IMG/VR virus record: IMGVR_UViG_3300045482_000112
Coordinates: 4,328-68,327 of that record
DNA: 64,000 nucleotides
Reading direction: 5' to 3' (one strand)
DNA from: a virus
In this document: positions 3,706 to 49,181 of the stretch, one piece after another
How the letters are laid out: every line of letters starts with the position of its first letter
Numbering within the stretch: position 1 is the first letter of the stretch
Notes under the pieces: generated by a model
The model's database searches: none
Told to the model about the DNA's origin: nothing
Seen by the model: the letters and a program-made list of their open reading frames with translations, nothing else
Program-made: the position numbers and the translations under genes

Positions 3706-4392
3706 ATGAGCAAACTACGTCTCTTACAGGCCGGACTGGTGGTCTACATCACTATCCTCATCACCTCCTTCCTGCATGTACTTCACGCTTTCCTGGCCTA
3801 CTCTGACAAGACCATTCAGCTCGGCAGTCTATCCATTCCAGGATGGTGGAGCGGACTGGGAGTGGCTATAGGTCTGGACCTGGCCATCATCTACTTCTCC
3901 TTCGTCTCGGTATTCCTGCAGACCAATGAAAAGGATGCCCAGGGCAAAACCATTCAGTCCCCCGGAGCCCTGGCGGCCCGCTACGGGGCTACCTGGGCCA
4001 TGCTGCTGGTCTGGTTTGCCGTGGTCTACTCCATGGTCTGGCAGCACCTGCAGGCCGGGGAGTGGGTGCCCGCCTTCATTGGGTTCATCCTCTCCCTGTT
4101 TGTCCCCCTGACCTCCCTGCGGGTAGGCCAGGTGCTGGGGGAAATTGCCAAGCTACCCGAGACCGAGACCCGGCCCCAGGAGTACCTGCCCCTGACCTCC
4201 CTGGCCCGAATTATCGACCGGGATGTCAAAGAAGTACTGGCCGCCATCCGCAACTACGAACAGGGTGAGGTGCGCCTGCTACGTCGGGGCAAAGACTGGC
4301 TGGTGCATAGCCAGGATGTGGAGGTGGTGCGTGCGGCAGTATTCGGTTATAACGAACGAAGCAGAACTGCGCAACTTACGCCTGCAACTTGA
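3706..4392 (+). CDS. multi-pass membrane protein (DUF2637-like) with possible C-terminal HTH
   Basis: About four hydrophobic helices, then LPLTSLARIIDRDVKEV HTH-like segment. Confidence 0.6.
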   Translation: MSKLRLLQAGLVVYITILITSFLHVLHAFLAYSDKTIQLGSLSIPGWWSGLGVAIGLDLAIIYFSFVSVFLQTNEKDAQGKTIQSPGALAARYGATWAMLLVWFAVVYSMVWQHLQAGEWVPAFIGFILSLFVPLTSLRVGQVLGEIAKLPETETRPQEYLPLTSLARIIDRDVKEVLAAIRNYEQGEVRLLRRGKDWLVHSQDVEVVRAAVFGYNERSRTAQLTPAT

Positions 4393-20300: not shown

Positions 20301-23300
20301 GAAGGTGTTGAGGAACTTCAGGTCCTCTTCCAGTACCCCTACTGCCCGGTCCTGTAAAGTTTCCCGGAGCTTACCCGCTTCCGCCGAATGGAACTCTACT
20401 TGCTGCTTGGCATGGTCAGCACGTACCGCCGCCAGCTCCGCCTGGGTCTGTGAGGCCAGGTTCCTGGAAGCCCGAGCATACTTATCCCGCTCGCCCGCAG
20501 CATGGTCCTTCTTGAGCATCTCCGTCAGGAGGAACCCCAGTTCCCGTTCCCGTTCCCTGGTCAACTTACCGGTCTGCTGCATCCACTGTAGCGTGGCAAT
20601 TCTGCGTTCAATGAGCCGGTCCATCTGCTTGCGCAACTTCGCCTGTAGAGGAGCATTCCCAGCCGACTTACGGTACTCCGCCAGCAGGCTGCGGTACTCA
20701 TCGTGCAACTCGCTTTTCCTCTCGGGGTCGGCCATGGTTTTGTCCAGGCCCCCCCAAGACTCCGCCGCTAGTTCATTCCACGCCTTGATAGAGTCCGAGA
20801 ACCTGTCCGCCAGGTCCTGGGACAGTTCATTTACAGCCTGAAACCGTTCCTCCAGGGGGACCGGCCCCGCCCGCAACGAGTCACGGGTACTGCGCAGGGG
20901 GGCAAATGCCTCCCGAATAAGGCGGTCCGTAGCCCGACTGTCCCGCTGCAGCAATTCATGGAACCGGCCCGCCATCTGAATCTGCGCACGGGCTAGGGCC
21001 TGAAGCTGTTCCTCAAACTGCCCCTGGGTCCTGCGCACAAACTCGGTATACTCAGCCGCTGCGCCGCGTACCCGCGCCTCGAAGTAGGCCCGCATCGGGC
21101 GCAGTTTAGCGATGAGTTCCTGGCTGGACTTAATGGCTGCTTCGGTATCGGCAATGGAGTCTTTGTTCTTGACCCGGTCCTTCTGCAGCCCCTTCAGCGT
21201 TTCGAGCTGGGCTGCCAGCCGGTTCTCGGCATTAGTCAACTCCTCGTAAAACTCATTCAACTGCTTGAGCCGGGTACGCTCAAATGCCTGTTGCATGGCG
21301 GGGAGTTCTTCATCAAACTTCGCCAGAATCTTACCCAGGCTCTGAATCTTCTGCTGACTCTGGCTCAACTGGGCCAGCGGGGCGGATGCCTTGGAGTCCA
21401 CTCGGGGCGCCAGAGACTCTTCCAACGACTCCAAGCCCTTCTCGGCGTCCTCGAATATCCTCTCCAGGTTGGCAATGACCCCATCTGAAGAGAAGAAAAT
21501 ACGGCTGGTCTGCTCCACCAGGTAGGCCAGCCCACTGCGGTTGTTGCGTAGTCCGTCCCTATTTACCCGAAAGGTGGACAGCAGAGCCAAGATGCCCTCG
21601 GTCTCGTCCCGGTGCCTGCGGGCACGGCGGATATAGTCATCCACCATTTGCCGGTCCAGGTCGGTATCCAACGCCACCGTAAACAGGGTGTCAAACCGCT
21701 TCAGTACTGCCGGTACCACGCTGGTCCACTCGTCCGCCGTAGCGTGACGGAACCGCTGCATAATGTCGGTGACATGAGTGGTCAGCTTGTACACGTTGCT
21801 GTTGGTGTCTGCAATGAACTCCGTCATGGGACGGAGGGTATTCTCCAGGCCCATCATGACCTGGGTGCGGGTCTGCTCCAGTTGCAACCGGAAAGCCGTG
21901 CGGGCGGTGTTGGCCTGAATGAGGTCGTTCTGGGCCCGGTCAATATCCAGGGCCAGGGTGCGTATTCTCTCCGCCGAAGCCCCTGAAGCTATGGCCTGAC
22001 GGTGAGCTTGTTGCAGGTTGGCCAGCAGCCGTTCCTGGTTCCTCACACTTTCGTTGAGACGGGTAAAGCCCTGGGGCAGGGTACCGATGTCACTGGCATC
22101 CAGGGAGAACTGCTCCCGGAGCCGGGCCACCTGGACATCGATAATCTTGTCCCTGGCCTCGACAATGGCCTCCTGAAATGCCTGCCTGCGGGTAGGGTCG
22201 GTCTCCCGGGCCAGCGCCTGGGTGAGTACCCGCACCAGGGTCTGGGCTTCCTGGGTCTGCTGCTCAAACCGGTTCAGTCGGGTCAGGTCCACCTCGGCCT
22301 TCAGGCGCTTGACCGCAAACTCCTGGTAAAGCTGGATGGTGGCCATGGCGTCATCGAAATGCTTGATGCGGTCCAGGACCGGTCCTATCTCCTTGAAAGC
22401 GTCAATAAGAACCTGCATGTGGGGGTCTATCTGGTTGTTCGCCCCCCGCCTGTGCAACTGCCGCTGTTGCTCCAGCAGCCGCTGTACCTGATTCTGAGCC
22501 CGGACACGTAGGTCTTCCAGCCGCTGAGTGTCCCTGCCCATGGTAGCCCTAAGCTCTCCCATGAGCCGGATGTCTCCACCCGTGGCCTCGCCTCGAGCCG
22601 CTTTGGCCTGAAGAGCCTGTAGCTGCTGGTACCGGGGGTCGTTGGTATTCGCCAATTCCTGGGTTATCCGGCGCAGCTCCTCCTGGGCCCGAGTGAGCTG
22701 AGCGTTCAGGTTATTCAATTCTGCCGCATGGGTGCTGGCGAAGTTAGCCCGAGCCTCCTGGTAGCGTTTGACCACCTGGTAGAGGTCGCGCATATCCTGC
22801 GCCCCTTCCAGGTCGGCATTGGTAATACCGATTGCCGCCGCCGAAAGGTCCTGGTTTTTGAGCATGGCCAGGGCACGGTCTACATTGATGGCCCGGTTGC
22901 CCAGGGCGTAAGTGAGGCTCCCATTCACCTCTCGGAAGCGGGACTGGCCTCGCTCGTCTTGTACCAGGTTCCGGCCTGTACGTTCGTCCAGCGCCGCCGC
23001 CTCGGCCTTACGGGCCTGGTTGTGGTACATGGCCAGCGCTCCCAGCGCCGAGACCGCCACCACTGCTGCCCCCACCGGGGAGAAAACCAGTTGCAGGGTC
23101 GCCCCCAGCATGGCCAGAATAGGTCCCAGCGCCGAGAGTCCCCCCCGCAGGGCCGAGACCCTCTCCACCGCCTGCTGCAGCGCGGTGCCCAGCACGGTCT
23201 TGGCTCCTCCCTGGGTTCCCAGCGCCGCCCAGGCCCCTGCCGTAGCCACCAACTGGCTGCCCACCAGCTTGCCCAGGAACAGCACCGCCTGCAGTCCCAG

Positions 23301-25241
23301 GGTTATCGCGGTCAGGGCACCGGCAATTCGCAGCAGGTCTCCTGCCGCAATACCCGCCACCTCCAGGTTGTTAAGCCAGTCCAGGAACTCCCCACCACTC
23401 CGGGTCACGGTCTCCACGATGGTCAGCAGTCCCAGCAGCGCCGTCTGCATGGTCAAAATAGAGTTGGAGCCCTGACCCAGCCCCACCGAGTCGAAGGTAG
23501 CCAGCAGCGCCTCATCGATAGCCGCCCCCACCTGCTGCTGGGCCTTGAAGACCTCCCGCCCGCTGGCGTGAAGGAAGCTATCCGCCATCTTCTGCCCGGC
23601 CTTCTCGGCCTCCTCGGCCAGGCGTGGGTAGAGTTCCACCCCTTTCTCCACATACTCCAGCACCTGGGCCAGAGAGTCCGAGACCTCATGCCCGCTCTTG
23701 GCATAGGCCACCGCTGCATTCCGCAACTGTTCGTAAGAAAGGGTCAGCCCAGCCCGGCTGGAGAGGAGCTTGTCGAAATTTTCCACCGCCTTCTCGGCCT
23801 GGGGTCCGGCCAGGGCCACTATTTCGGCCAGCATTCCGGGGTCCACCGACATCCGGCGCTGGCGGATAAGCACATCCTGGCTCTGCTTGAGCATCCCATC
23901 CGCGTCTACCCCGAACTGGTGGTAGACCACGCGGGTACGGTTGAGCAGGTCCGAGAATCCGCTGGTACTCCCGCCCAGCCTGGATATTTCCACCAGAGCT
24001 TGAGACAGCTTGGTGACGGTCTGCTCCGAGGCCCCGGCCAGGGCAATCATCTCCTTACGCAGAACCGATATTTCCTGGGCCTTGGCCTCTTCCCCCCGGC
24101 TCTCCAGGATATTCTCGTACACATGCAGGTTCTTGGTCAGTCCGGTCAGGTCCTCGGCGGTCTTGGCGATGGCCGCCGTGGTCAGGAAAACCACCGCCGC
24201 ACCCAGGCTTCCCAAGGTGTTGGAGAATACGTTGTAAAGCTGGTTCTGGAACTCCTCTACCGTGGGTCCCAGGGTCTCAATGAAGTTATGGAACAGTTTG
24301 TCGTCCTGGGGACTCTGAGGGTTCCGACCATAGAGGAGCGAGAACGCCCGAGCCTGCAGGTTGGCATCCGAGTTGGCCTGGGCGGTACCCAGGGCATTCT
24401 TCAGCCCCCGGCTGCGTCCGGCATCCCCGACCAACTGGGACATGTCCCCCACCCTGGCCGTCTGGAACTGGGTCTGTATCTGCCGCAGGGCTGCCGCGTC
24501 ATTGGTCAGCCGGGTATTCAGCAGCTTCTCCAGCTCATCCAGGTCCTTGAAGGTACTGGACAACTGAGTGGACAACTGGCGCACCAGGGCTGCATTGACT
24601 TGGTGCCCTCCTTTAGGACCGGTAGTCACCCCCAGTTGCTGCACGTTACGCAACAACACCTGAGCGCGGGTCAGGTCGGTCTTGCGGCCCAGCAGCTTGC
24701 TGGCCTCCTTGCTGTCTATCTGCGACAGCACCGTGTCCAGGGTACCCAACTGCTGCACTATGTCCCTGGCGGCGGTACCCGTGACCATTCCCCCGCTGGT
24801 CTTGGAGATATTCCCTACCGCCGTCTGCAGACCGGTCACCGCACTGGTGAAGTCCTTGCGCACCGTGTGTACCCGGCGCATGACGGTACCCAGTTCGGTA
24901 AACAACTGGTTCACCGCAACCGACATATCCTGCATATGGGTCACAGCCATGGCCGAGTTACCACTGCGGATGGCCTCGGTCATAGACTCTTTGGCTGCGC
25001 TGGCCCGAGCAAACAGGGCCTGGTACGCTTGCACATCCTGCTGGGACATTCCCAGGTTGAACCGCTGGTTCATGCCCTGGATGCTCTGGCCCACAAACTC
25101 GGTTCCCGACTCAGTAAACATCACCTTGGCGTTCTTGTTCCCGGAGGCAGTACGGAGCAGGTTTTCCAGGGGTTTGAGGGCCTTTGCCAGTTCGGCTTCC
25201 AGCCCGGCCAGAGACACATTAAAGTCCGCATTCAGGCGCAT
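17346..25241 (-). CDS. tail tape measure protein (~2630 aa)
   Basis: Very long helical Ala/Leu/Glu/Gln-rich ORF with hydrophobic segment, after tail tube and chaperone; GGAG RBS before ATG 25241. Confidence 0.88.
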   Translation of the reverse strand: MRLNADFNVSLAGLEAELAKALKPLENLLRTASGNKNAKVMFTESGTEFVGQSIQGMNQRFNLGMSQQDVQAYQALFARASAAKESMTEAIRSGNSAMAVTHMQDMSVAVNQLFTELGTVMRRVHTVRKDFTSAVTGLQTAVGNISKTSGGMVTGTAARDIVQQLGTLDTVLSQIDSKEASKLLGRKTDLTRAQVLLRNVQQLGVTTGPKGGHQVNAALVRQLSTQLSSTFKDLDELEKLLNTRLTNDAAALRQIQTQFQTARVGDMSQLVGDAGRSRGLKNALGTAQANSDANLQARAFSLLYGRNPQSPQDDKLFHNFIETLGPTVEEFQNQLYNVFSNTLGSLGAAVVFLTTAAIAKTAEDLTGLTKNLHVYENILESRGEEAKAQEISVLRKEMIALAGASEQTVTKLSQALVEISRLGGSTSGFSDLLNRTRVVYHQFGVDADGMLKQSQDVLIRQRRMSVDPGMLAEIVALAGPQAEKAVENFDKLLSSRAGLTLSYEQLRNAAVAYAKSGHEVSDSLAQVLEYVEKGVELYPRLAEEAEKAGQKMADSFLHASGREVFKAQQQVGAAIDEALLATFDSVGLGQGSNSILTMQTALLGLLTIVETVTRSGGEFLDWLNNLEVAGIAAGDLLRIAGALTAITLGLQAVLFLGKLVGSQLVATAGAWAALGTQGGAKTVLGTALQQAVERVSALRGGLSALGPILAMLGATLQLVFSPVGAAVVAVSALGALAMYHNQARKAEAAALDERTGRNLVQDERGQSRFREVNGSLTYALGNRAINVDRALAMLKNQDLSAAAIGITNADLEGAQDMRDLYQVVKRYQEARANFASTHAAELNNLNAQLTRAQEELRRITQELANTNDPRYQQLQALQAKAARGEATGGDIRLMGELRATMGRDTQRLEDLRVRAQNQVQRLLEQQRQLHRRGANNQIDPHMQVLIDAFKEIGPVLDRIKHFDDAMATIQLYQEFAVKRLKAEVDLTRLNRFEQQTQEAQTLVRVLTQALARETDPTRRQAFQEAIVEARDKIIDVQVARLREQFSLDASDIGTLPQGFTRLNESVRNQERLLANLQQAHRQAIASGASAERIRTLALDIDRAQNDLIQANTARTAFRLQLEQTRTQVMMGLENTLRPMTEFIADTNSNVYKLTTHVTDIMQRFRHATADEWTSVVPAVLKRFDTLFTVALDTDLDRQMVDDYIRRARRHRDETEGILALLSTFRVNRDGLRNNRSGLAYLVEQTSRIFFSSDGVIANLERIFEDAEKGLESLEESLAPRVDSKASAPLAQLSQSQQKIQSLGKILAKFDEELPAMQQAFERTRLKQLNEFYEELTNAENRLAAQLETLKGLQKDRVKNKDSIADTEAAIKSSQELIAKLRPMRAYFEARVRGAAAEYTEFVRRTQGQFEEQLQALARAQIQMAGRFHELLQRDSRATDRLIREAFAPLRSTRDSLRAGPVPLEERFQAVNELSQDLADRFSDSIKAWNELAAESWGGLDKTMADPERKSELHDEYRSLLAEYRKSAGNAPLQAKLRKQMDRLIERRIATLQWMQQTGKLTRERERELGFLLTEMLKKDHAAGERDKYARASRNLASQTQAELAAVRADHAKQQVEFHSAEAGKLRETLQDRAVGVLEEDLKFLNTFNIQSQRQLSQIQGWITVLQGDAAAQKEAPHLLAELRKQLEEATQAHRKEVQTFLTTRMETFLGDLQTATEAQNDSVLTEAQKAEARNKGLTSLRHLMTLRPLLAGSGLSERDLAEREKRMRDGIVAAAKLFGAEVGNQGVDLSSLDNLQEHIAREVLPRLRRIGIPQELIPELVKVLYGPEAVRGLEKSMEALEEMTEEELAKNIDTVLALEGDLSVLEASGLAPEFTERLRQRWAQLRARLEASLGSETMRKLREGVQPLEEQADLAMEDEEVAKAVESRLGILALLQEASMAPYADRDAVKELQKAEVARIRGLVGHAQFIPQALGKGLMELWEEQQGSPATRATALVEAALSALPQTASLSEEVRKALVDAALKPVLNSVVAEARRLAQLAVEGHELDRTRFETLLGTDPAAALQELSTAVAKFKQAAFQQVQAARTALDLAKTSAEKEEAQVNLEQAVVGYLTAYRGFLSETVDRLEKAFTEGLLTDAQYAQALKDLESLSVNPVLLVNQLRPLAEAIGMGEEELQKLVKGFLDLSQRLKKLREGLDTARLAILGDTRLTRGEREYRLQAAGVQAQLRQDTQNSQGDLDRAEALRGLVSAFLEFRTREFERGLGQHLPQEQRETEVENFRSQLISSLEGLDGAGLMQRLGLETSPEQARQFHQVLLAALKDFREDQKRNTDQLKTLLMDLLGQLQGMLQSFFMEVMSIPTRMMEESRVRESRAGELRTEQGLVTAQIAEYERLYAEAVKNYGAASEQAERYREKLVELRGEQRGLSEEFRANEESARSFFDYLLEAIANFLKAFANAIQQIIAQEMATRAVRWVVGAAFPGVSSTGVGEGSPAPVSQNPPAGTMVTGQSAGPNPVAAGVQVGSAALTNWAGAGLSSALGLAGTAGAFLGPLAVGMVVGLVANGVSSLVERYSDLEQNHRQAGVNRFEESPFDLSARRRVEVHLHGQYDRQKLADEAKQKVYQEMGRELLD

Positions 25242-25254
25242 ATAACTCCAAAAC

Positions 25255-25286
25255 AAAAAAGGGCGGTAGGCTCTCGCCCACCGCCC
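25255..25286 (-). terminator. intrinsic terminator between chaperone and tape measure
   Basis: GGGCGGTGGGC-GAGA-GCCTACCGCCC-TTTTTT on - strand. Confidence 0.8.
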
Positions 25287-39323: not shown

Positions 39324-41477
39324 ATGCTAAGCATAGAGAAATTCAAGGAAACAATTAAGGAAAAGAAGGAGCACCTCACAGAAGCCCGTAAAGTATACAC
39401 GGGCTCGTTTTCAGAGAGAGGATGGGAGAGGGACTCGTTCGCTCTCCTTTTCAATAATGACGTAAAAATCGAGGACGTAGTGGTAGGGAAGGAGCCTGCC
39501 ACTGTTTTAGACAACATGGAATTCGTGGGGGGCAACTCCCACCGGGTGGTGTACATGGACCTGAAAGGGTTCATGGCCAAATACCCCATCCTTGGAAAAT
39601 GGTGGGGGGAGAAAGGAGACTCCCACCTCCTGGCCAGTATGTTTTTAAGGCCAGGAAAGTTATTCCAGGGGGAAGGGTATATTTCCCTGCCCCCAAAAAA
39701 CAATAAGGAGGTCAATGATGGCCTCCTGATGACCCTGAGCCGTAAAGAATGGGGTCGTTTGGTAGAGGGGTTTGAACTGCCCCTCGAGACCGCCCTAGTT
39801 CAGGGGACGGTGTTTAGTCCCCAGGACGGAATTGTTGGAAAGGGCACCATCCGGGTGGTACTGCCCGGTGAGAAGCCCCAAACTTTTGTGGGGAGCTGGA
39901 AGTCCCTGCCCGAGGAGGTAGGGTCGCTGCTATTTTCCAGTATTTCGGTGCTGGAAACGGACGCCACCTATCGACCCAGGGCGTCTATCAATTTACAGGA
40001 GTACACCTACTGGGCCAGGGCAAGGGGGTACTCCTTGTCTCCATGGGTCTTGGAAGAGGCCCTGGCCGGGGTCAATAAAATTATGGTGGGGGAAAAGTCC
40101 TCCATCTACAACGGGTGGGGGTACCTCTCCCGTCTAGGGATACCCGCCCCCGACTCCATGCTGAAGGAGATGGAGGAGGGCCTGAAGGGAGGGCTATACA
40201 AGGCCCTCACTCGCTGGGAGCTGTCCCGTGCGGCAGGGTGGAGGGGTAAGGTCTCCGGGTCCGAGAAGTTGGCGGACCGGGAGATTCTGATGCCCAAAAG
40301 CTCAGATACCGTGATAGGGGACACGGTATACGCCACCAGAAACCCCGCCCTACCCATCAATGGGTGGGTGAGATACACGGTAGTGGGCCACGTAGGAGGC
40401 AATGTGGCCTATGTAAGTGGGGCGAGCGATAGCAAGTTCGCCCAAGTTTTAGGGGGAGACTTCGACGGGGATGACCTGGTGGTGCTGTACAGGAACCCCG
40501 TGCAGGGCGAATACGAGCCCGTGGTCAACCTCCAGCAGTGGAAGGCCGAGGGAAGGAAGTACGGCACCTCGGCAGAGGACCGGTTGGCCCGCTGGAACAA
40601 GGAGCGGGAAACCAATATCGGGCAGTGGGACATCCTAGCCCGATACTGTGCCGACTTCAATATGCTGAGCGAGGAGCTGGTCCTGCAGTTCTCCAAACTC
40701 ATACAGTTCAGCATCTCTCTGAAGAAGAGAGTGGGAGAACTGGAAGTGCCCAGAGTGGTATACACGGCCATGAAGATGGTGGGTCCCATGAAGGAGCTAT
40801 CGCCCACCTACTTCCTCCGCACCTTCAGGGATAGCACCAAGGAGTCCCGCGAGGCCGGAATGGTCACCCACGCAGAGGCCCTGGCCGAGCTGATGCCCAT
40901 TGTCGAGGCAGTCTCTGATGGGCTCGAGGCAGTCTCGGTGGGGAAAACCCGCTGGGACTTTTCGAGGGCCAGAGAAGTGGCCTTGAAAGTGAGGGACAAC
41001 GACGCCCTCAAGGTGGTCGCAAAAGAGTACCTTGAGAAGTTTGTGGCCCTCAGCACCGCCAAATTCCAGGCTGCAGAGGCCGAGGATGGGGATGTACGGA
41101 GCATCCTCAATCGGGAGCTCAGGTACCTACTGCAAGTAGAAATGCCCGAGTTCATGCTGGGCCTGGAGGAGGAACAGGCCCTGGAGTTCTCCGCCGAATT
41201 GGTCAAGGTGTTCCCCAACAGCATCTTCTGGGTGTTCGCGGTACACCCGGAATTCCTCAGAAGGGTGGCCATGGCTACCTTCGCTGGAGAGAAGGCCATG
41301 TTGGTGGGGGAGCATAGCTTGCAGGAGGGGGATACAGTTATCATCCCCCCCTACACCCGAGAAGTTGAGGTTGGAGGGCAGATGATGAAGCTCTCCAACG
41401 GAGTAATGCTCTGGGAGGAGGTGAAAACCGCCACCGTGGTGAAGGTGTATGCCAAGTCGGTGGTCCTGAAATTCTAA
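39324..41477 (+). CDS. single-subunit double-psi beta-barrel RNA polymerase (YonO/QDE-1/P23-45 gp64-like)
   Basis: LGGDFDGDDL catalytic loop, upstream YATRNPAL and IVGKG; 717 aa; AAGGAG RBS. Confidence 0.8.
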   Translation: MLSIEKFKETIKEKKEHLTEARKVYTGSFSERGWERDSFALLFNNDVKIEDVVVGKEPATVLDNMEFVGGNSHRVVYMDLKGFMAKYPILGKWWGEKGDSHLLASMFLRPGKLFQGEGYISLPPKNNKEVNDGLLMTLSRKEWGRLVEGFELPLETALVQGTVFSPQDGIVGKGTIRVVLPGEKPQTFVGSWKSLPEEVGSLLFSSISVLETDATYRPRASINLQEYTYWARARGYSLSPWVLEEALAGVNKIMVGEKSSIYNGWGYLSRLGIPAPDSMLKEMEEGLKGGLYKALTRWELSRAAGWRGKVSGSEKLADREILMPKSSDTVIGDTVYATRNPALPINGWVRYTVVGHVGGNVAYVSGASDSKFAQVLGGDFDGDDLVVLYRNPVQGEYEPVVNLQQWKAEGRKYGTSAEDRLARWNKERETNIGQWDILARYCADFNMLSEELVLQFSKLIQFSISLKKRVGELEVPRVVYTAMKMVGPMKELSPTYFLRTFRDSTKESREAGMVTHAEALAELMPIVEAVSDGLEAVSVGKTRWDFSRAREVALKVRDNDALKVVAKEYLEKFVALSTAKFQAAEAEDGDVRSILNRELRYLLQVEMPEFMLGLEEEQALEFSAELVKVFPNSIFWVFAVHPEFLRRVAMATFAGEKAMLVGEHSLQEGDTVIIPPYTREVEVGGQMMKLSNGVMLWEEVKTATVVKVYAKSVVLKF

Positions 41478-41578
41478 GAACCCCGGAGTAGAGGCACCTC
41501 CACAGGCTTTGCCGCGTGGGGGATGCCCACCTATTATAAAAAGACCGTCACCTCGCTCGGTTACTTCGGCACCTAAGA

Positions 41579-41604
41579 GGGCCGCTTCGCGGCCCGAATC
41601 GGTG
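41579..41604 (+). repeat. hairpin module A copy 1
   Basis: GGGCCGC-TTC-GCGGCCC-GAATCGGTG. Confidence 0.85.
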
Positions 41605-41654
41605 AGGACAAAAGAGGGAAAAGAAACAGCCCTCTGGCGTCCGAAGGAGGAGTT

Positions 41655-41972
41655 ATGGAATTAAAGAACTTAACCCCCCATGCCCTGGTGGTTGCAGGGC
41701 GAACCATCGAGCCCTCGGGGGTCGTGGCAAGAGTTAGTGTGTCGTTCGAGGATGCCGGGTCCGTGGATGGCATCCCCGTGGTGTCTCAGGTATTCGGGCA
41801 GGTGGAGGGCCTGCCCGAGCCCCAGGAGGGCGTGGCCTTCATCGTCAGCGGTATGGTTCTAGCGACGATAAAGGGCCGGGCGGACGTGTTCGCCCCGGAC
41901 ACCGGCCCCACCGCCATCAGGAACGAGAAGGGCCACATCATCGGGGTGGTCCGTCTCGTGGCAGCGGGGTAG
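41655..41972 (+). CDS. conserved viral hypothetical protein (NLTPH type)
   Basis: NLTPH, PSG..ARV, GLPEP..G...IVS, RADVFAPD; strong RBS. Confidence 0.8.
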   Translation: MELKNLTPHALVVAGRTIEPSGVVARVSVSFEDAGSVDGIPVVSQVFGQVEGLPEPQEGVAFIVSGMVLATIKGRADVFAPDTGPTAIRNEKGHIIGVVRLVAAG

Positions 41973-41977
41973 TTACC

Positions 41978-42235
41978 ATGGTCCCCACCCTGGCCTCCCT
42001 GGGGCGGGCGGTGTTTGTCTGCCGCACGGCCCAGGGATGGGATGTTAGCCCTCATCAGCGGGTATCCCGTAGCAGGCTGCAGGCATTTACTGCCAGCGGC
42101 CAGCTCCGGCTGCTGGATACCCCCACAATAGCCTTCGTCCAGTCGGGGGAGAAGTGGGTGCCCGCAGGCATCTACGACTCCCCCGATGGCCCCATCGCGC
42201 TGGAGCTGCGGCAGGTAGCCGTGGCTTCGGCGTAG
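41978..42235 (+). CDS. hypothetical protein
   Basis: In-operon 85-aa ORF. Confidence 0.6.
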   Translation: MVPTLASLGRAVFVCRTAQGWDVSPHQRVSRSRLQAFTASGQLRLLDTPTIAFVQSGEKWVPAGIYDSPDGPIALELRQVAVASA

Positions 42236-42253
42236 GTAGTAGTAGGAGGACCC

Positions 42254-42403
42254 ATGTATACCAATATAGAAATAGAAGAGCAAGGGGACGGCTGGGTAGT
42301 TTCCCAGGCGTCCAACGGCATTATAATCGGGGTCTACTCCACCTGGGAACAAGCCTGGGCAGTTGCCACCGCAATCGATGCCGAGCTCGGCGTCCCCCAG
42401 TAG
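42254..42403 (+). CDS. 49-aa hypothetical protein (DUF2188-like)
   Basis: AGGAGG RBS; GDGWVV...YSTWEQAWAVA. Confidence 0.65.
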   Translation: MYTNIEIEEQGDGWVVSQASNGIIIGVYSTWEQAWAVATAIDAELGVPQ

Positions 42404-42410
42404 CCCCCAG

Positions 42411-42442
42411 CCCCAGGGTCCAAAAGACTCTGGGGTATTTTT
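42411..42442 (+). terminator. intrinsic terminator
   Basis: CCCCAGGGTC-CAAAA-GACTCTGGGG then TATTTTT. Confidence 0.7.
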
Positions 42443-42629
42443 CTGTACCCCGGCTTGACCGGTGGTACTCCTGGCAAAAGCCACAGGGCCGCATTCGCGG
42501 GGGCTATAACCCCGGCCCTGGCGATGAAGCTGAGCTTTATCGCCCTCGAGGTTCCACAAGAACCGAGAGTGATGGCTTTCTAAACAACAAACCAAGGTTT
42601 TGGTTGTGGGGTACAACTAAAACCTCGAC

Positions 42630-42746
42630 ATGCCTCTGTGAGGGCCTACAAGGGGCCTAGAAGCGCTTACCCCCCCGTCTCCAGTCTTACCCCTACAACC
42701 GGGGGTGGAGGAGCTTCTAGGTACCCTACAGAGGCTTATAGGGGGT
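42630..42746 (+). repeat. ~117-bp long-hairpin repeat copy 1
   Basis: ATGCCTCTGTGAGG...CTAGAAG...CTCCAGT..CTTACCCCTA...CTTCTAGG...CTACAGAG..TTATAGGGGGT shared with 44076. Confidence 0.8.
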
Positions 42747-42808
42747 GTTTACCCTCGAGGTGTCGGCTCGTCCCCAGAGTTCCCTCGAGGGTACCCCGAC
42801 ACTCTGCA

Positions 42809-42834
42809 GGGCCGCTTCGCGGCCCGAACCGGTG
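42809..42834 (+). repeat. hairpin module A copy 2
   Basis: GGGCCGC-TTC-GCGGCCC-GAACCGGTG directly before RBS. Confidence 0.85.
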
Positions 42835-42848
42835 ATAAGGAGGACAGA

Positions 42849-43355
42849 ATGTTATACGTGGTTTTCAACACCGACAAGCCCACTCCCTTCGTAAATATCG
42901 GGGGGGTCCAGTTCGGCCCCCTGGGTACGGGAAAGTACCTGGGGAACGACTGGAGCTACCTGGTTATCCCCGAGGTAGCAGGGCGCTTGCTTTCCGTGCA
43001 GGTGCCTTCCAGGGCCACTGCCAGGGATGCCAGCTTCCACGGCCAGTTCGGGGATGGCGTATATGCCGTCCTCCTGGCCCGGTACAACGGGAGACGGTCC
43101 CCAACCCTGTTCCTCACCGATGAGGCCGACCATGAGCCCATCGGAACCGGAGGGGCCAAGTGCGTCTGGCAGTACGGGGATGGCCACGGTATGAAGTTCG
43201 GGGCCCTCCTCCGGCTGGACCCCGTAGCTCAGGTAAAACTGAGCGTAACGGGGCACCACGACCACGGCTGGGCCCGTCACATCTTCAAATTTCAGGATGG
43301 GGTAGTCTCCCGCATCCCCAGGAATGGGGGCTGGAAGACTCCCCCAGTAATTTAG
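42849..43355 (+). CDS. hypothetical protein
   Basis: AAGGAGG RBS before ATG 42849. Confidence 0.75.
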   Translation: MLYVVFNTDKPTPFVNIGGVQFGPLGTGKYLGNDWSYLVIPEVAGRLLSVQVPSRATARDASFHGQFGDGVYAVLLARYNGRRSPTLFLTDEADHEPIGTGGAKCVWQYGDGHGMKFGALLRLDPVAQVKLSVTGHHDHGWARHIFKFQDGVVSRIPRNGGWKTPPVI

Positions 43356-43363
43356 GGAGAGTT

Positions 43364-43672
43364 ATGCGAATAGACATAAAGGCCACCCTGGCCGCCCTGA
43401 TGGGGATGCCGGGGGAGTTAGTCACTAGGACAAACCCCGCCAGTAGCGCGGTGGGGCCGTCCACCGAGTTTGCCGTCCGGGACCAGGACGGGGAGGACAG
43501 CCTGGAACTCCTCCTCGACTACCTGGTCATCTCCGTATCCTGGGGGTCCATGAGTTTCTGGGACCGCTGGGAGGGGGAGCCCGGAGAACCCCTGCGGTAC
43601 ACGGGAACCGTAGGGGACGCCCACAGAAGACTACCCGCATGGGTGGTCTTCGAGGAAGGGGGTGCGGGTTGA
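43364..43672 (+). CDS. hypothetical protein
   Basis: GGGAG RBS, ATG 43364. Confidence 0.7.
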   Translation: MRIDIKATLAALMGMPGELVTRTNPASSAVGPSTEFAVRDQDGEDSLELLLDYLVISVSWGSMSFWDRWEGEPGEPLRYTGTVGDAHRRLPAWVVFEEGGAG

Positions 43673-43861
43673 TGCCCTCATAGGGTGGTTTGTCGGGTGG
43701 TACTCGAGGCGAGAGTCCTCAGGATGGCTCCCGCTAGGGGGGCTATACCCCGGCCACACCGTGGGGGGATGACCTGCCTCAAAACTTTCCTAGGCAGGTA
43801 CCGCCAGGTAGACGCCATGGGGGTGCTGAAGAGGAGCGAAGCGACTGTTCCCCACCTGAGA

Positions 43862-43887
43862 GGGCCGCGAAGCGGTCCGAACCGGTG
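43862..43887 (+). repeat. hairpin module A copy 3 (GAA loop)
   Basis: GGGCCGC-GAA-GCGGTCC-GAACCGGTG. Confidence 0.8.
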
Positions 43888-44075
43888 ATGAGAAAGAGCA
43901 GAAGGAGCGCGGAGAAGCGCTCCGGGTAGGGACAGCAAAGGTAAACCCAATCCTGCACCTGAGAAAGGAGGTCACCCCATCTATAAAGTGTGCTCCCAGC
44001 CGCAATTCCTATCCAATGAAGGGGGTAGAATCCCCCCAAATCAGGAAATGCGTCCAGGGCATACTAAAATGCCAT

Positions 44076-44193
44076 ATGCCTCTGTGAGGCTCTGTAGGGG
44101 GTCTAGAAGGCTGACCCCCCCCCTCTCCAGTACTTACCCCTAGACCAGGGGGTCGAGGCGCTTCTAGGGGGTCTACAGAGCCTTATAGGGGGT
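44076..44193 (+). repeat. ~118-bp long-hairpin repeat copy 2
   Basis: GGCTCTGTAG/CTACAGAGCC and CTAGAAG/CTTCTAG stems. Confidence 0.8.
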
Positions 44194-44230
44194 AATGACG
44201 GGGGGCGTAGCGACCCGTCGTTGCCCTTGA

Positions 44231-44254
44231 GGTTCCGAAGGAACCGAACGGGTG
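44231..44254 (+). repeat. hairpin module A copy 4 (compensatory stem)
   Basis: GGTTCC-GAA-GGAACC-GAACGGGTG. Confidence 0.7.
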
Positions 44255-44723
44255 TTTAGGGGTAGCATGTCGGGAAGGTTGGCCGAATGCCCCCCACCCC
44301 AGAGAAGAGGGGGTGACCTCCGGGTTAAAAACTTTCCTGGGCATGTACCGCCGTATAGACGCCATGGGGACCCTACAGACGCCGAGCTAAGGCCCCATCC
44401 AGAGCCCGGAGGCCCCCCCGCCGCAGGGCTCGGGATGCCGGGGGGACTAAAAACTTTACGGAGCGTGTACCGCCCGGCAGGCCACAGGGGGTAACTCCCC
44501 TCAGCCGTGTTGCAGAAAGGAGGCATGGTATACTGGGCAGTACCAGCCCATTTAGTCTGACTCCATAGCCCCCCTCCCATGACAAGTCGCTTCGCTCCTT
44601 GTCTGGGCGGGAGGGGGGTTGGGGGGTGGGAAATGTAACGACTCACCCTAGAGATTCCTTGGGCCGAGTGAGGAATATGCGGTGCAGGACGTAGGGGAGG
44701 CATGTACCGGTGCCACGCAACAT

Positions 44724-44752
44724 CGACCCCTAACGACCCCTAACGACCCCTA
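44724..44752. repeat. 3x10-bp tandem repeat
   Basis: CGACCCCTAA-CGACCCCTAA-CGACCCCTA. Confidence 0.85.
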
Positions 44753-45191
44753 TCCACCCTTTCTCCCCCTTCCCGACCCTCCCCCCTTATCCCCCTCACC
44801 CGTCACTAACCTCGTCCAGGACGAGGTTTCTCTCCTACGGAGGAGATGTCCACAGGACTATACTCAGTACAATTCCAGTTAGGTAAACGGCTACACCACA
44901 GTCTTTTTACTTAACTGAGCATGTACCGCCAGTCCTGCTACCGACATTTCCTCCCTCACCATTCCTACCCTGTGTCTGGGACACACTTCCCCCTCGTCTT
45001 GAAGGGAGCTTCTGCTATTCTCCTTTCTCTTCTAGTACAAAGGACTGGGAGGGAAAAGGTGTATCCAGAGAGAGAAAGGGTTAACTCCATGTCCTTCACC
45101 CTAATACATGTCTTTTACTAGTAGGCATGTACGGGGTCATTGTCTTTTACCCTTAACTCCACGTCCTCTACCAGTAAAGAACAAGGAGAAA

Positions 45192-45278
45192 GGTAAGGAA
45201 CGTAGAGAGATAGTAGAAAGGACTGGGAGATAAAGGGTAAGGGACGTAGAGAGACAGTAGAAAGGACTGGGAGATAAA
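45192..45278. repeat. 2x44-bp purine-rich tandem repeat
   Basis: GGTAAGGRACGTAGAGAGAYAGTAGAAAGGACTGGGAGATAAA twice; AAAGGACTGGGAG also at 45039. Confidence 0.85.
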
Positions 45279-45402
45279 CAATAGAGAACAGAGAGGAGAT
45301 TAGGATTTTTGCTACCCTAGCCCAAGTACCCCCCTGTGTACAATGAGAGAAGCCCCGCGATGTGCCCGCATCCGGGGCTTTGCCATTCCTTGAAAGGAGT
45401 GT

Positions 45403-45963
45403 ATGAAGCTCGGGAACACCCCAAACAAAACCGTGGTTGTGTACCGCCTGTACCCCACAAAGGAGCAAGAAAGTACCCTGCTGCTCACACTAGACCTAAC
45501 GTGGAAGCTATACAACATCGCCCTGACGGAACGGAAGGAAGCCTGGAAACGACACAAGAAGAACCTATCCGCATACGACCAGATGTATGCCTTACCCTAC
45601 CTCAAGAAGACAAGACCCGAGTTCCAAAAGGTCTACGCTCAGGTGCTCCAGCAAACCCTTATCCAGGTGGAACAAACGTTCAACAGATTCTTCGCAAAAG
45701 TCCGCCTGAAAGAGAAGGCAACCTATCCCCAGGTTGTAGAAAGAGGGGAGTGGACTAGCTTCACCTTTCCGCAAGTCGTGGTGGGTACAAAATGGCAAGG
45801 TCCAGGTAAGTTACGAGAAAACGGTACCGTCAAAATTCCCAAGATAGGAGACGTTCGGATAGACGTGCACCGTCCCCTTGAAGGGACACCTAAAGCCCTC
45901 ACCATCAGTTACCAGAACGAGCAATGGTACGCACTGTACTCCTGTGACGTACCACCAACCTGA
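45403..45963 (+). CDS. TnpB N-terminal (WED/REC) protein lacking RuvC
   Basis: YRLYPTKEQ, LYNIAL.ER, VYAQVLQQ, FNRFF, SFTFPQ, KIPKIG, HRPLEG..K..TI..WY; ends before RuvC-I. Confidence 0.85.
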   Translation: MKLGNTPNKTVVVYRLYPTKEQESTLLLTLDLTWKLYNIALTERKEAWKRHKKNLSAYDQMYALPYLKKTRPEFQKVYAQVLQQTLIQVEQTFNRFFAKVRLKEKATYPQVVERGEWTSFTFPQVVVGTKWQGPGKLRENGTVKIPKIGDVRIDVHRPLEGTPKALTISYQNEQWYALYSCDVPPT

Positions 45964-45982
45964 GCCCACAATAACCACAGCA

Positions 45983-46022
45983 ACCCACCCAGAAAGACAC
46001 TCCATGTCCGACTGGGTGGGTT
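45983..46022 (+). terminator. hairpin after truncated tnpB
   Basis: ACCCACCCAG...CTGGGTGGGT then TCTCTT. Confidence 0.5.
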
Positions 46023-46029
46023 CTCTTGT

Positions 46030-46114
46030 GCCGCTTCGCGGCTAGACCGGTGATGAAGGGAAGCGTAGCGACCCGTCATTACCTATGAGGGCCGCTTCGC
46101 GGCCCGAACCGGTG
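46030..46114 (+). repeat. hairpin module A copies 5 and 6 joined by hairpin B
   Basis: GCCGC-TTC-GCGGC-TAGACC-GGTGATGAAGGG..GCGTAGCGA..CCCGTCATTACC-TATGA-GGGCCGC-TTC-GCGGCCC-GAACCGGTG. Confidence 0.85.
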
Positions 46115-46145
46115 GGGAGTAAACAACCCACCCAAGGAGGCAGTC

Positions 46146-46370
46146 ATGTTTGAAGTCTACGGCACCATTACCTACTACACCAACACGTTCGACAACCATA
46201 CCCGTCAAAAGTACATCATCCAGAAGTTTTCCTCCAGGACGAATGCCGAACGGTACCGCCGTCTCATGGACGATACCAACCCGGACACTGACCTGGCCAT
46301 CCGCTCCGTACCCAACTTCCCCCGCCGCCCGGTAGTAAGACGCATCCGGGTAGCATCCGCCGCCCACTAG
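46146..46370 (+). CDS. hypothetical protein
   Basis: AAGGAGG RBS. Confidence 0.7.
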   Translation: MFEVYGTITYYTNTFDNHTRQKYIIQKFSSRTNAERYRRLMDDTNPDTDLAIRSVPNFPRRPVVRRIRVASAAH

Positions 46371-46440
46371 CCACGGAAGCAAGTACACACTTCCACCACC
46401 CCACAGCCCAGGCGCAGGGTTATGCGTCGTAGGAGTTTCT

Positions 46441-46830
46441 ATGTTGACCATTCAAGGTGTTGTTACCCCAGGAAAAGCAGAGTTCTTCAAAGGTCTGCAA
46501 TTCACCCCCAAGGGCCAGCCCTTCACCGAGCTGCGCATCAACCTCGGGGATAGCGACCGTCCGCGCTGGCATGGGGTCACGGTGTACGGTGCCGAGGCCC
46601 AGCTTACCGCCCTGCTAGACTCCCTCAAGAAGCCTGAGGGGGGACACACCAGCCTGCTGGTACGTGCCCCCGCCCAGCCCCGCACCTTCACCGCCTCCAT
46701 CCGCAATGCCGAAGGGGAGGTAACGGGGCAGAAGGAACTCCTCTCCTTCTCTACCAACTTCAACTCCCTCCAGGTATGGAGAAACGACATCCGCAGTTGG
46801 GTGGACTACGCCAACCAGCCCCTGTTCTAA
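46441..46830 (+). CDS. SSB-like OB-fold protein
   Basis: FTPKGQPFTELRI...WHGVTVYG..A resembles SSB. Confidence 0.6.
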   Translation: MLTIQGVVTPGKAEFFKGLQFTPKGQPFTELRINLGDSDRPRWHGVTVYGAEAQLTALLDSLKKPEGGHTSLLVRAPAQPRTFTASIRNAEGEVTGQKELLSFSTNFNSLQVWRNDIRSWVDYANQPLF

Positions 46831-46844
46831 GCCCACACTCCCAC

Positions 46845-46881
46845 GAGGGATAGGTGCCTGCTGCCTATCCCTCAACCTTTT
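46845..46881 (+). terminator. intrinsic terminator
   Basis: GAGGGATAGG...CCTATCCCTC then AACCTTTT. Confidence 0.55.
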
Positions 46882-46890
46882 GAGGTCTCT

Positions 46891-47430
46891 ATGTTGTCAG
46901 TCGCTCCTACGCCCGCCCTGGCTGCTTGGAAATTCCTTGGTGATGTGTACACGGCTCACCGTCACGCCAGAGACGTACTCCGCTACCTCGAGAAACATAC
47001 CCACCCGCAGGAGGACTTCCTTCCAAAAGACCTCATTCAGAAAATCCAGTATTTCCAGTTACAGGACACAAAACTACGCCTGGAGTTCTACCAGCTCACC
47101 CGCCTGTCCCAGAACTTCCAATCCCTACAACTCGCCGCTTACGCAGTTTGGGGGCACGCCCTGGAGTCCGACCGGCCTATCCCGGAAATGTCGGTACAGG
47201 AAACCGATACTTTCCTGTTCCCCACCCCCGCTGCCAACCTCCTGCGCCAGGCCATACGGTACACCCCCCAGGGGGAGGAGCTGCTAGAAGAAGCCCACGG
47301 ATGGCTGCAATATGCCATCGGTACCAACCCTCGCCAACTCGGCTGTGCTGACCCCATTCTCGGGCCAGTACGCGCCATCAAACTGCTTTTACCCACCTGG
47401 ATGGGGAAGCCTTATGAGACTAGCCATTGA
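46891..47430 (+). CDS. hypothetical protein
   Basis: GAGG RBS; overlaps amidase start. Confidence 0.7.
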   Translation: MLSVAPTPALAAWKFLGDVYTAHRHARDVLRYLEKHTHPQEDFLPKDLIQKIQYFQLQDTKLRLEFYQLTRLSQNFQSLQLAAYAVWGHALESDRPIPEMSVQETDTFLFPTPAANLLRQAIRYTPQGEELLEEAHGWLQYAIGTNPRQLGCADPILGPVRAIKLLLPTWMGKPYETSH

Positions 47431-47986
47431 CCCCGGTCACGGGATGAGCAACCGCACTGCGGGAGTACTGGACCCCGGTGCGGTACACGGCACCACCACC
47501 GAAGTTGAGGTGGCCCTGGCTATCGCCCTCACCCTCAACCACGTTTGTCAGGAACAGGGCATCTCCACCTGGCTGTCCCGCAGCAACAACAGCCAGCCCA
47601 CCCCACTTAACACCAGGGTGTCCCGGGCCTTGGCTGCCGGATGTACCCACCTCATCAGCATCCACCTCAATGCCGCCGCCTCCAGTCAGGCCAACGGCAC
47701 CGAGACCCTGTACGCCGACAGTGCCGACCTGGTACTGGCCCGTGATGTCCAGGCGGCTGCCCTGGCGGCCTGGGGCCTCAGGGACCGGGGCATCAAGCGG
47801 GAGAAGTCCCCCGAGTTTCCCGGAGACCTCCTCATCCTGGATAACCGTATTCGCGGAGTCCTGCTGGAAGTGGGCTTCATCTCCAACAACAGGGACCGCG
47901 AAGCCATGGCCAGCCGCGAGGCTCGCCTCACCTTCGCCCGCCAACTAGCTTCGAGGTTAAAACATTATGAACCGCTTGCAAAGTAA
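47414..47986 (+). CDS. N-acetylmuramoyl-L-alanine amidase (Amidase_3)
   Basis: IDPGHG, ISIHLNA, ANGTE, LLEVGFISN. Confidence 0.93.
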   Translation: MRLAIDPGHGMSNRTAGVLDPGAVHGTTTEVEVALAIALTLNHVCQEQGISTWLSRSNNSQPTPLNTRVSRALAAGCTHLISIHLNAAASSQANGTETLYADSADLVLARDVQAAALAAWGLRDRGIKREKSPEFPGDLLILDNRIRGVLLEVGFISNNRDREAMASREARLTFARQLASRLKHYEPLAK

Positions 47987-48179
47987 CCTGGAAATTCTCA
48001 AGCGTCTAGAGGAACATGTACGTCGCCATCCCACCATACGACTGGGGCAGGCCATGGTCAACCTGGGCGTAGTGCAGATGCAGTCCCACGGGGTTGTCCT
48101 ATGCGCCTGCGACCCCTTTATGGAGGAGCCCCAGGACACCCTGGCCCGCATGAAGCTACGGGACCCCATCCCCGTATGA
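47967..48179 (+). CDS. hypothetical protein
   Basis: HPTIRLGQA...DPF.EE small phage protein; coupled. Confidence 0.65.
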   Translation: MNRLQSNLEILKRLEEHVRRHPTIRLGQAMVNLGVVQMQSHGVVLCACDPFMEEPQDTLARMKLRDPIPV

Positions 48180-48595
48180 GACTCCTGCCCCTGCTGTTCC
48201 TCCTGGCCCTGCCCCTGCCCACTCTTCCCGCCCCCTCCCTGCTGCAATTCCAGCCCCTGCCTCCAGCACCCACCTACACCCTGCTGGAGGTCACTCTAAC
48301 CGCCTATAACTCCCTGCCCTACCAAACCGACAGTACCCCCCACATCACTGCCAGCAGTACCCGCACCCGTCCCGGAGTGGTAGCGGTGTCTCGAGACCTG
48401 CTACGAGTCTTCCCCTACGGCACCCGAGCCCGCATCCTCTCCCACACCTGCGGTACCCGCCCACCCAACTCCCACCTCATCGTGGAAGACACCATGCACC
48501 GTCGCAAACAAAACCAGGTGGACATCTGGATGCCTAGCTACTCCCAGGCCATCCAGTGGGGGCGGTGTAAAGGGACGGTGAAGTTCTATGAGTAG
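48176..48595 (+). CDS. secreted 3D-domain (MltA-like) protein
   Basis: Signal peptide; TAYNS..QTDSTP.ITAS, VAVSRD, PYGT, VEDT, VDIWM, AIQWGR. Confidence 0.85.
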   Translation: MRLLPLLFLLALPLPTLPAPSLLQFQPLPPAPTYTLLEVTLTAYNSLPYQTDSTPHITASSTRTRPGVVAVSRDLLRVFPYGTRARILSHTCGTRPPNSHLIVEDTMHRRKQNQVDIWMPSYSQAIQWGRCKGTVKFYE

Positions 48596-49181
48596 CCTGG
48601 ACCGTCTCATAGCCCCCTGGGCAGAGATAATCCCCTACCCTATACAACAGCCCCCCCCAGGACAAACCGCCCTGCTGGAGGTCCCCTTACTAACCTACCT
48701 CGACCACAACAAGGTGAGGAGGTCCTTGCTTCCCCTGGGCCCAAACTTGGCCCTTACCACCACATGGACCTTGGCCGACATCGAACACCTGCCCCACGGT
48801 GTCAGTAGAACCCTGTTGTTGCCCCCGACAGACGTGTCCCCCAACCTGCGGGTTATCTGGGCCAGCGACGGATGGCGCCACATAGCCCCCAGCCCCTACC
48901 TGGAAGTCAGCGAAGACGTTGTACTGTTCGACCATTCGGAAATGCGTATCGCTGTTATTCCAGGCCGGGTAGGCAATGTACTCAGAGCCCCAGAGTCGTT
49001 CTACCCCGAGAAGTATAACTTTACCACCTCGCACCAGTCCGTCGCTCTGGTCTATACGGAGGCCCCATACCAGGCCCAACTGCGCATAGGTGACCAGGGG
49101 ACCTGGCCCGCCGCTGGAGAGCCTCCCTACCCAAACCCATCACCATCGCAAACTTTCTGGATAAACTCACCTTACGGATAG
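48588..49181 (+). CDS. hypothetical protein, paralogue family member
   Basis: LLPLGPNLAL, SFYPE. Confidence 0.7.
   Translation: MSSLDRLIAPWAEIIPYPIQQPPPGQTALLEVPLLTYLDHNKVRRSLLPLGPNLALTTTWTLADIEHLPHGVSRTLLLPPTDVSPNLRVIWASDGWRHIAPSPYLEVSEDVVLFDHSEMRIAVIPGRVGNVLRAPESFYPEKYNFTTSHQSVALVYTEAPYQAQLRIGDQGTWPAAGEPPYPNPSPSQTFWINSPYG

Follow-up and report, generated by a model that had tools for sequence, protein, structure and literature searches.

The 64,000-nucleotide (nt) window analyzed here (positions 4,328–68,327 of the IMG/VR virus record IMGVR_UViG_3300045482_000112) encodes a 186-amino acid (aa) protein that is the WED+REC lobe, i.e. the lobe binding the transposon-adjacent motif (TAM), of an IS200/IS605-family TnpB. 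This TnpB "stump" ends just before RuvC and cannot act as a nuclease or as a mobile element. From sequence comparisons, we see about an even chance that it is an immobilized insertion sequence (IS) remnant that selection now maintains as a truncated, guide-less nucleic acid-binding protein, as opposed to a slowly decaying pseudogene.

The stump is encoded by an open reading frame (ORF) that starts with ATG, contains no internal stops, and is preceded by the ribosome-binding site (RBS) GAAAGGAG (Table 1), as described in the initial annotation, which was made from the sequence alone. Its protein matches the Pfam family PF12323 (HTH_OrfB_IS605) at 6.8e-10, positions 8–175 of the 403 in phrog_506, and positions 2–184 of the 389 in the NCBIfam profile guided_TnpB (NF040570), the latter with 79 bits, below the cut-off of 100. 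In phmmer, residues 9–176 align to residues 5–167 of ISDra2 TnpB, for which the accessible part of Nakagawa 2023 (PMC10097598) gives WED as residues 1–12 and 117–176, REC as residues 13–116, and RuvC as starting from residue 185. The ORF end therefore lies in the WED–RuvC linker, and the clean cut just past WED that the initial annotation had proposed is real. When aligned with seven full-length relatives, the ORF protein terminates in WYALYSCDVPPT; the relatives run on with CEVPxxPLPxTGxxVGIDLG, which places the stop about 13 residues before their RuvC-I motif GIDLG.

Structural comparison leads to the same assignment. The best Foldseek match of the protein is ISDra2 TnpB (8h1j_A; TMq 0.81, root-mean-square deviation (rmsd) 2.5 Å), and it also matches 8ex9_A, a 166-residue form titled as RuvC-unresolved (TMt 0.87). 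The AlphaFold2 model from a 110-row alignment has a predicted local distance difference test (pLDDT) score of 95.4 and a pTM of 0.89; this high pLDDT stems from the full-length relatives in the alignment and is no proof that the half folds alone.

The remaining parts of the element are missing, in agreement with the initial annotation, which had noted neither a RuvC or zinc-finger remnant nor tnpA nearby. When seven full-length relatives were compared with the window by tblastn, each gave one significant match, confined to its N-terminal ∼185 residues, with all other matches at E ≥ 0.19. Six-frame family searches, in which control genomes do match, found no Y1_Tnp (TnpA), OrfB_IS605 (RuvC, PF01385), or TNB (PF07282) in the whole 68,327-nt record, which is classed as a provirus and has an estimated completeness of 64%, so that part of the phage lies outside every within-record search. 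Rfam returned zero matches at the gathering score; the omega-RNA would lie at the tnpB 3′ end, which is deleted here, and Rfam may contain no model for the omega-RNA of this subfamily. At E ≤ 1, the only Rfam match in 41400–46500 was to a eukaryotic untranslated region, which was rejected as chance-level.

Two hairpins flank the stump and together with the ORF make up the 45350–46022 range that had first drawn attention. Both had been noted from the sequence, and none of 200 shuffled sequences folds as stably as either (Table 1). The upstream one (AAGCCCCG...CGGGGCTT) probably formed the subterminal hairpin at the left end of the former IS200/IS605-type element: Thermus phage TSP4 has a comparable hairpin ∼60 nt ahead of its full-length tnpB (L002 2897–2923), and the tblastn alignment of the full-length relative P0021 extends upstream into 45352–45402, i.e. 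into the hairpin. The downstream one (AACCCACCCAG...CTGGGTGGGTT) is possibly a terminator or a deletion junction. Its 5′ arm, directly after the stump, is a repeat (45981–46002; D10) that recurs with 77% identity in the 22 nt preceding the ATG of the next gene (CAACCCACCCAAGGAGGCAGTC, 46124–46145), and the two copies may be left over from the rearrangement in which the remainder of the IS was lost. In the in-frame read-through tail past the TGA stop, AHNNHSNPP, the residues SNP match both the tail of the close relative P0002 (VPSNPA) and the S/K-Q/N-P of full-length linkers; by this weak, three-residue likeness, TnpB-derived DNA may reach about 45990, within the downstream hairpin.

Close relatives of the stump are scarce. 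A word-indexed search of 5.8 billion clusters yielded 20 matches among 42 similar-length candidates, and, the query aside, P0002 (128 aa, 69% identity) was alone above 41%. Among longer proteins, the same search gave 83 matches from 345 candidates, with P0021 (409 aa, 52%) as the best; all longer proteins among the matches listed carry the RuvC and TNB Pfam domains. An exhaustive HMMER search of 1.84 billion representatives returned 3551 matches at E ≤ 1e-3, and among the best 150 of these P0002 alone exceeded 54%. In the phage collection, 25 records match with at most 43% identity, and megablast of 43000–49000 against this collection gave no match. No relatives were detected when viral contigs were scanned with the stump protein, its 129-aa neighbor, and its 216-aa neighbor, or when metagenome and genome contigs were searched by alignment for relatives of the stump. 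The search for homologues of equal length suggested in the initial annotation thus brought to light one close relative, which has 128 aa, and no family.

P0002 aligns to stump residues 61–186, and the two proteins end within 2 aa of each other (CDVPSNPA in P0002 versus CDVPPT in the stump). Random breakpoints among homologues, which had been named beforehand as speaking against a domesticated protein, were therefore not seen in the single close homologue available (one of one).

The whole stretch is contained in one sequencing run only, a groundwater metagenome from which the DNA may originate. In a soil metagenome from a different study (run X2), small contigs represent a relative that is 85–90% identical. 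One X2 contig, with a depth of 9.27 at both joints, covers 45285–45399 and 45537–45710 and continues for at least 174 nt from 46128, skipping 137 nt (45400–45536) and 417 nt (45711–46127). The X2 bin depths are consistent with this layout; two of the 30 bins lack X2 cover (45015–45215 and 45819–46019), and our soil-run evidence is confined to the part that a contig joint bridges. The flanking pieces, including the flanking genes and the non-coding island, are 85–90% identical to the window, whereas the stump gene is mostly not matched at 80% likeness; the bridged part 45711–46127 is unmatched at this level, and neutral simulations predict ∼85% nucleotide identity at the amino acid divergence between the stump and P0002.

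Because the X2 contig is at least 80% identical to 45537–45710, it encodes a close relative of the stump, and only P0002 fits in both protein searches. The contig that encodes P0002 is 1173 nt long, which fits the X2 layout and is too short to add the ∼620-nt RuvC/TNB half. From the layout and this length, we infer that P0002 is a same-locus orthologue with a real stop. The truncation is thus probably older than the divergence of the two phage lineages.

The differences between the stump and P0002 look filtered by selection. The two proteins differ at 38 of 124 ungapped columns, with a mean BLOSUM62 score of +0.58. We mutated the stump codons neutrally in 3000 runs until the same number of amino acid differences was reached; the 214 runs that remained stop-free (7.1%) had a mean score of −0.52 (standard deviation 0.26), and none of them attained the observed score. 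In a MAFFT alignment of the pair with 156 full-length relatives (340–450 aa; 94 of 252 proteins were excluded by length), the pair differs at 40 of 126 columns, of which nine are among the 49 conserved columns (at least 70% family consensus) and 31 among the 77 variable ones (Fisher p = 0.011; at consensus thresholds of 0.6, 0.8, and 0.9, p = 0.126, 0.018, and 0.091, respectively). Both the stump and P0002 have a stop-free frame.

Constraint is unevenly distributed along the protein. Residues 1–60 match the family consensus at 18 of 21 positions and residues 119–186 at 16 of 20 (18 of 20 in P0002), like full-length proteins. In residues 61–118, by contrast, the stump matches at 14 and P0002 at 15 of 29 positions, and only 0.6% of the 156 full-length proteins score lower. 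The nearly invariant TnpB motif G[FY]PRF is gone (TYPQV in the stump, PYPKL in P0002), and R88, R99, G103, G107, R110, and F111, all retained in the nearest full-length relatives, are lost from both copies. Some of the replacements are common to the pair (Q88, K99, K103, and E116, none of which occurs in the full-length P0021 and P0022), and others differ between the stump and P0002 (G107 to T/P, R110 to Q/K, and F111 to V/L), with P0021 and P0022 canonical at these positions. The released residues cluster in the second half of REC and at the REC–WED junction. The loss of R88, R99, G107, R110, and F111 argues against TnpB-like RNA-guided binding; the accessible part of PMC10097598 makes no mention of R108, F109, and related residues. 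Other nucleic acid binding would be compatible with this loss. Stump residues Tyr-58, Gln-80, Gln-83, and Gln-124 keep the family consensus; in our own mapping, made by phmmer alignment onto the TAM and phosphate contacts in the accessible part of PMC10097598, they are the equivalents of ISDra2 Tyr-52, Phe-77, Gln-80, and Gln-121.

In a tree of 34 sequences (the pair and 32 of the best full-length matches; columns 61–184), the stump and P0002 are sisters with 100/100 support on the longest inner branch (1.4), and their tips measure 0.25 and 0.26. Taken together, these comparisons suggest that the fold was conserved and the reading frame kept, whereas TnpB-specific positions were released.

We therefore favor, at the even chance given above, the following course of events. 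An IS200/IS605-type element, consisting of a left-end hairpin and tnpB, would have inserted into an intergenic repeat region of a P23-45-like phage. One old deletion would then have taken everything past WED, i.e. RuvC, the TNB zinc ribbon, the omega-RNA, and the right end, so that the element neither cuts DNA nor moves; this deletion presumably preceded the split between the lineage of the groundwater window and that of the soil-metagenome relative. The stump would have stayed an open, RBS-preceded frame under relaxed but real purifying selection on the WED+REC fold while losing residues that are specific to the RNA-guided function of TnpB. The likeliest mode of action would be that of a small, guide-less nucleic acid binder using the WED–REC cleft, which in TnpB holds the TAM duplex, and the stump protein might serve as a site-specific DNA binder or competitor. 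A further step, which we consider unlikely, would make the WED+REC-only derivative a new, guide-independent kind of TnpB domestication: a site-specific DNA binder that acts as a decoy at TAM-like sites, sequesters the partners of host TnpB/Cas12-type nucleases, or regulates the promoter- and stem-loop-rich island, with more members among the ∼185-aa clusters of the ESM Atlas.

Several observations weigh against a protein retained by selection. The stump has one sister only and no family of same-length homologues, which makes two members in total. An endolysin query retrieved 19 viral and 61 metagenome loci (at most 50% identity), and tblastn detected a relative of the stump in none of these 80; Thermus phages TSP4 and phiLo, the two matching phage records that were opened, carry full-length tnpB. 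P0002 starts at stump Met-61 and lacks the first 60 residues. The alignable soil-contig DNA continues for 46 nt upstream of the P0002 start and skips codons 1–45, and the N-terminal third of the relative (WED strand 1 and the long first REC helix) looks broken or replaced. Since the gene falls below 80% and its flanks are 85–90% identical, it evolves faster than its surroundings, and its GC content (0.50) has not been raised to the phage level of about 0.6. Joints placed at less than 95% likeness in metagenomes may come from other organisms or repeats, and it is only probable that the X2 contig encodes P0002. The reservation on the pLDDT score belongs on the same side. Finally, all 30 nearest feature clusters in the ESM Atlas are PF12323-only proteins of ∼181–185 aa with 78–92 members, and a 189-aa cluster with 131 members, most commonly from Chloroflexota, matches by structure; one of these clusters is named "putative Transposase (Fragment)". 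Given this database frequency, PF12323-only stumps of ∼185 aa may be routine debris.

Much of this would be expected of a plain pseudogene, an IS remnant that has not yet acquired a stop and is already decaying in the relative, with the apparent constraint reflecting sparse data or divergence before inactivation. We regard this explanation as a serious one, albeit short of even probability. It would account for the missing residues 1–60 of P0002, the 137-nt skip, which is not a multiple of three, the faster divergence of the gene, its low GC content, the poor consensus match of residues 61–118 in both copies, and the abundance of fragment-like clusters, and the stop-free share of the neutral simulations is not negligible. 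However, the replacements are conservative to a degree that no stop-free simulation reached, differences are depleted in conserved columns, and the segments on either side of residues 61–118 are as consensus-like as those of full-length proteins. Moreover, drift would hardly leave the frame free of stops and frameshifts along a stem branch of 1.4 changes per column, and the RBS and the frame are intact over 186 codons.

The observed differences could also reflect selection on working TnpBs if the pair had no common truncated ancestor, either because the truncations were independent or because an active host IS recombined with one copy and overwrote it. The phage group does acquire tnpB repeatedly, as the full-length genes of TSP4 and phiLo illustrate, and the end and the locus of P0002 are inferred and not read from its contig DNA. 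We nevertheless consider this improbable, as the end points agree within 2 aa, the pair shares the derived states Q88, K99, K103, and E116, no full-length protein above 54% identity appears among the best 150 matches, and the soil contig joins the same flanks. A split gene, whose RuvC/TNB half is encoded elsewhere and forms a nuclease jointly with the stump, is more improbable still: the incomplete record leaves room for such a half in the unsearched part of the phage, but the family searches of the record and tblastn on the window found none, and the nearly invariant TnpB motifs are lost. The initial annotation's proposal that the stump is an exapted factor thus stands in part; its narrower suggestions of a DNA opener for the RNAP, a binder of the island RNAs, or an inhibitor of TnpB/Cas12 are speculative. 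The common end point, the probable common locus, and differences that look selected speak for a selected stump, whereas the single homologue and its missing N-terminal 60 residues do not.

The phage carrying the stump encodes a P23-45-type portal, a large terminase, a major capsid protein, a family A DNA polymerase, and a ribonucleotide reductase in the window. Its portal shares 39–44% amino acid identity with the portals of phiFa and of the Thermus Oshimavirus group, indicating a distant relative of the Oshimavirus-group siphoviruses. The window also contains a 2636-aa ORF at 17346–25256 on the minus strand. The stump ORF is co-oriented with all neighboring genes and lies in a region of low GC content (0.47–0.51 across 44800–46000 versus about 0.6 around it). 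The 74-aa protein of the next gene, used as a query, found its own cluster only and no tie to the contig of P0002.

Table 1. Positions of the TnpB stump and of surrounding features in the window
Feature	Position (nt)	Strand	Details
Upstream hairpin	45350–45380	+	23 nt before ATG; −15 kcal/mol, z −4.2; 0/200 shuffles as stable
Ribosome-binding site	45388–45395	+	7 nt before ATG; read from sequence
186-aa ORF, WED+REC (REC-lobe) half of TnpB	45403–45963	+	Family and structure matches; ATG start, zero internal stops
In-frame read-through tail past TGA	45964–45993	+	Translation
Downstream hairpin	45982–46022	+	19 nt past stop codon; −15.7 kcal/mol, z −4.15; 0/200 shuffles as stable
Island stem-loop element copy	46049–46122	+	Repeat families D3/D4; context, outside IS remnant
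Next gene, 74 aa	46146–46370	+	Soil contig (X2) resumes at 46128, just upstream
Stem-loop + CGAACCGGTG copies	41580–41604, 42810–42834, 43863–43887, 44234–44257 (divergent), 46090–46114	+	Pattern search
AACTTTNC..GC..GTACCGCC copies	43783–43805, 44330–44352, 44452–44474, 44908–44930	+	Gene-poor stretch 43700–45400

The placement of the stump in a repeat island, likewise recognized from the sequence alone, was borne out by repeat counts far above chance. The core of the stem-loop, GGCCGCTTCGCGGCCCGAACCGGTG, has four copies on the plus strand (0.01 expected). Followed by CGAACCGGTG, the stem-loop occurs five times in 4.6 kb, four times with the exact pattern (0.01 expected) and with compensatory changes in the stem (GGCCGC-TTC-GCGGCC, GGCCGC-GAA-GCGGTC, and GGTTCC-GAA-GGAACC). 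Three copies bear a second, upstream hairpin, two are followed after 25–35 nt by an RBS and ATG (about 42849 and 46146), and the soil-run relative lacks 60 nt (44190–44249) that span the copy located there. The stem-loop may represent a leader, a terminator, a processing element, or a small insertion unit. The stump adjoins one copy and the 74-aa gene on their 5′ side; with five occurrences in the island, these structured repeats are not stump-specific. The second motif, AACTTT..GTACCGCC (AACTTTNC..GC..GTACCGCC), has four plus-strand copies (0.02 expected), which are candidate promoters that a phage or host polymerase might use. A σ70 consensus scan of the same region gave no sites, and a terminator scan was uninformative (five sites versus 3.3 expected).

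Other features of this region were recorded alongside. The listed 216-aa ORF (42705–43355, plus strand) has a GTG start and includes one stem-loop copy followed by AAGGAGG and an ATG at ∼42849, which is probably the true start of this gene (MLYVVFNTDKP...). The stretch 44800–45400 has a GC content of 0.47 and no credible ORFs. It contains a 44-nt tandem duplication (45189–45232/45233–45276, 93% identical) with a third, partial copy at 45033–45060, and the soil-run relative gives no cover over 45015–45215. A 10-nt repeat, CGACCCCTAA, occurs three times at 44724–44763.

By sequence and fold, the stump shares the WED+REC lobe with the TnpB of IS200/IS605 elements (ISDra2; PDB codes 8H1J, 8EXA, and 8EX9; TMq 0.81, rmsd 2.4–2.5 Å), and its upstream hairpin resembles an IS left end. 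However, it lacks RuvC with its D-E-D triad, the TNB zinc ribbon, and the C-terminal tail, and the omega-RNA, right end, and tnpA of such systems were not found for it. Whereas a working TnpB keeps G[FY]PRF and the subfamily arginines R88, R99, and R110, the stump has lost them (R88Q, R99K) and scores 79 of the 100 bits required by NCBIfam. Functionally, it therefore does not qualify as a TnpB, failing on RuvC, on TNB, on the curated cut-off, and on the invariant motifs. The PF12323-only proteins of ∼181–189 aa in the ESM Atlas resemble the stump in length and single-domain make-up, but include no close relative of it, as P0002 alone exceeds 54% among the best 150 HMMER matches. Truncated transposase-derived inhibitors such as Tn5 Inh and IS1 InsA reportedly act as DNA-binding stumps that compete with the full-length protein; the likeness is one of idea only, since TnpB is not the transposase.

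A further parallel is found in TldR and other inactivated TnpB derivatives. The stump resembles them in being TnpB-derived, immobilized, and nuclease-inactive, and possibly in being kept by selection. According to the accessible part of Altae-Tran 2023 (PMC10691335), inactivated derivatives retain the RuvC scaffold and are mutated in its catalytic residues, and a flagellin-associated clade at most lacks RuvC-III, in agreement with the initial statement that described nuclease-dead derivatives retain a dead RuvC. TldRs also use a guide RNA, as stated in the accessible part of Wiegand et al. (10.1101/2023.11.30.569447). The stump has no RuvC lobe, and a guide RNA was not found for it; it is thus not a TldR. 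In the literature searched, as far as its accessible parts go, we came across no TnpB derivative reduced to WED/REC and lacking RuvC, although the supplementary tables of PMC10691335 may list truncated forms. If the stump were mere debris, it would be an ordinary IS scar, yet a dated marker of an old insertion common to two phage lineages. If it is instead a RuvC-less, guide-less half under selection, some "transposase fragment" entries in databases would merit a second look. Whereas the TnpB domestications described in the accessible literature (Cas12, TldR, and the sigma- and flagellin-associated forms) keep the RuvC scaffold, the REC lobe would then be a self-standing functional module, and a very abundant gene family would have gained a new way of being exapted.

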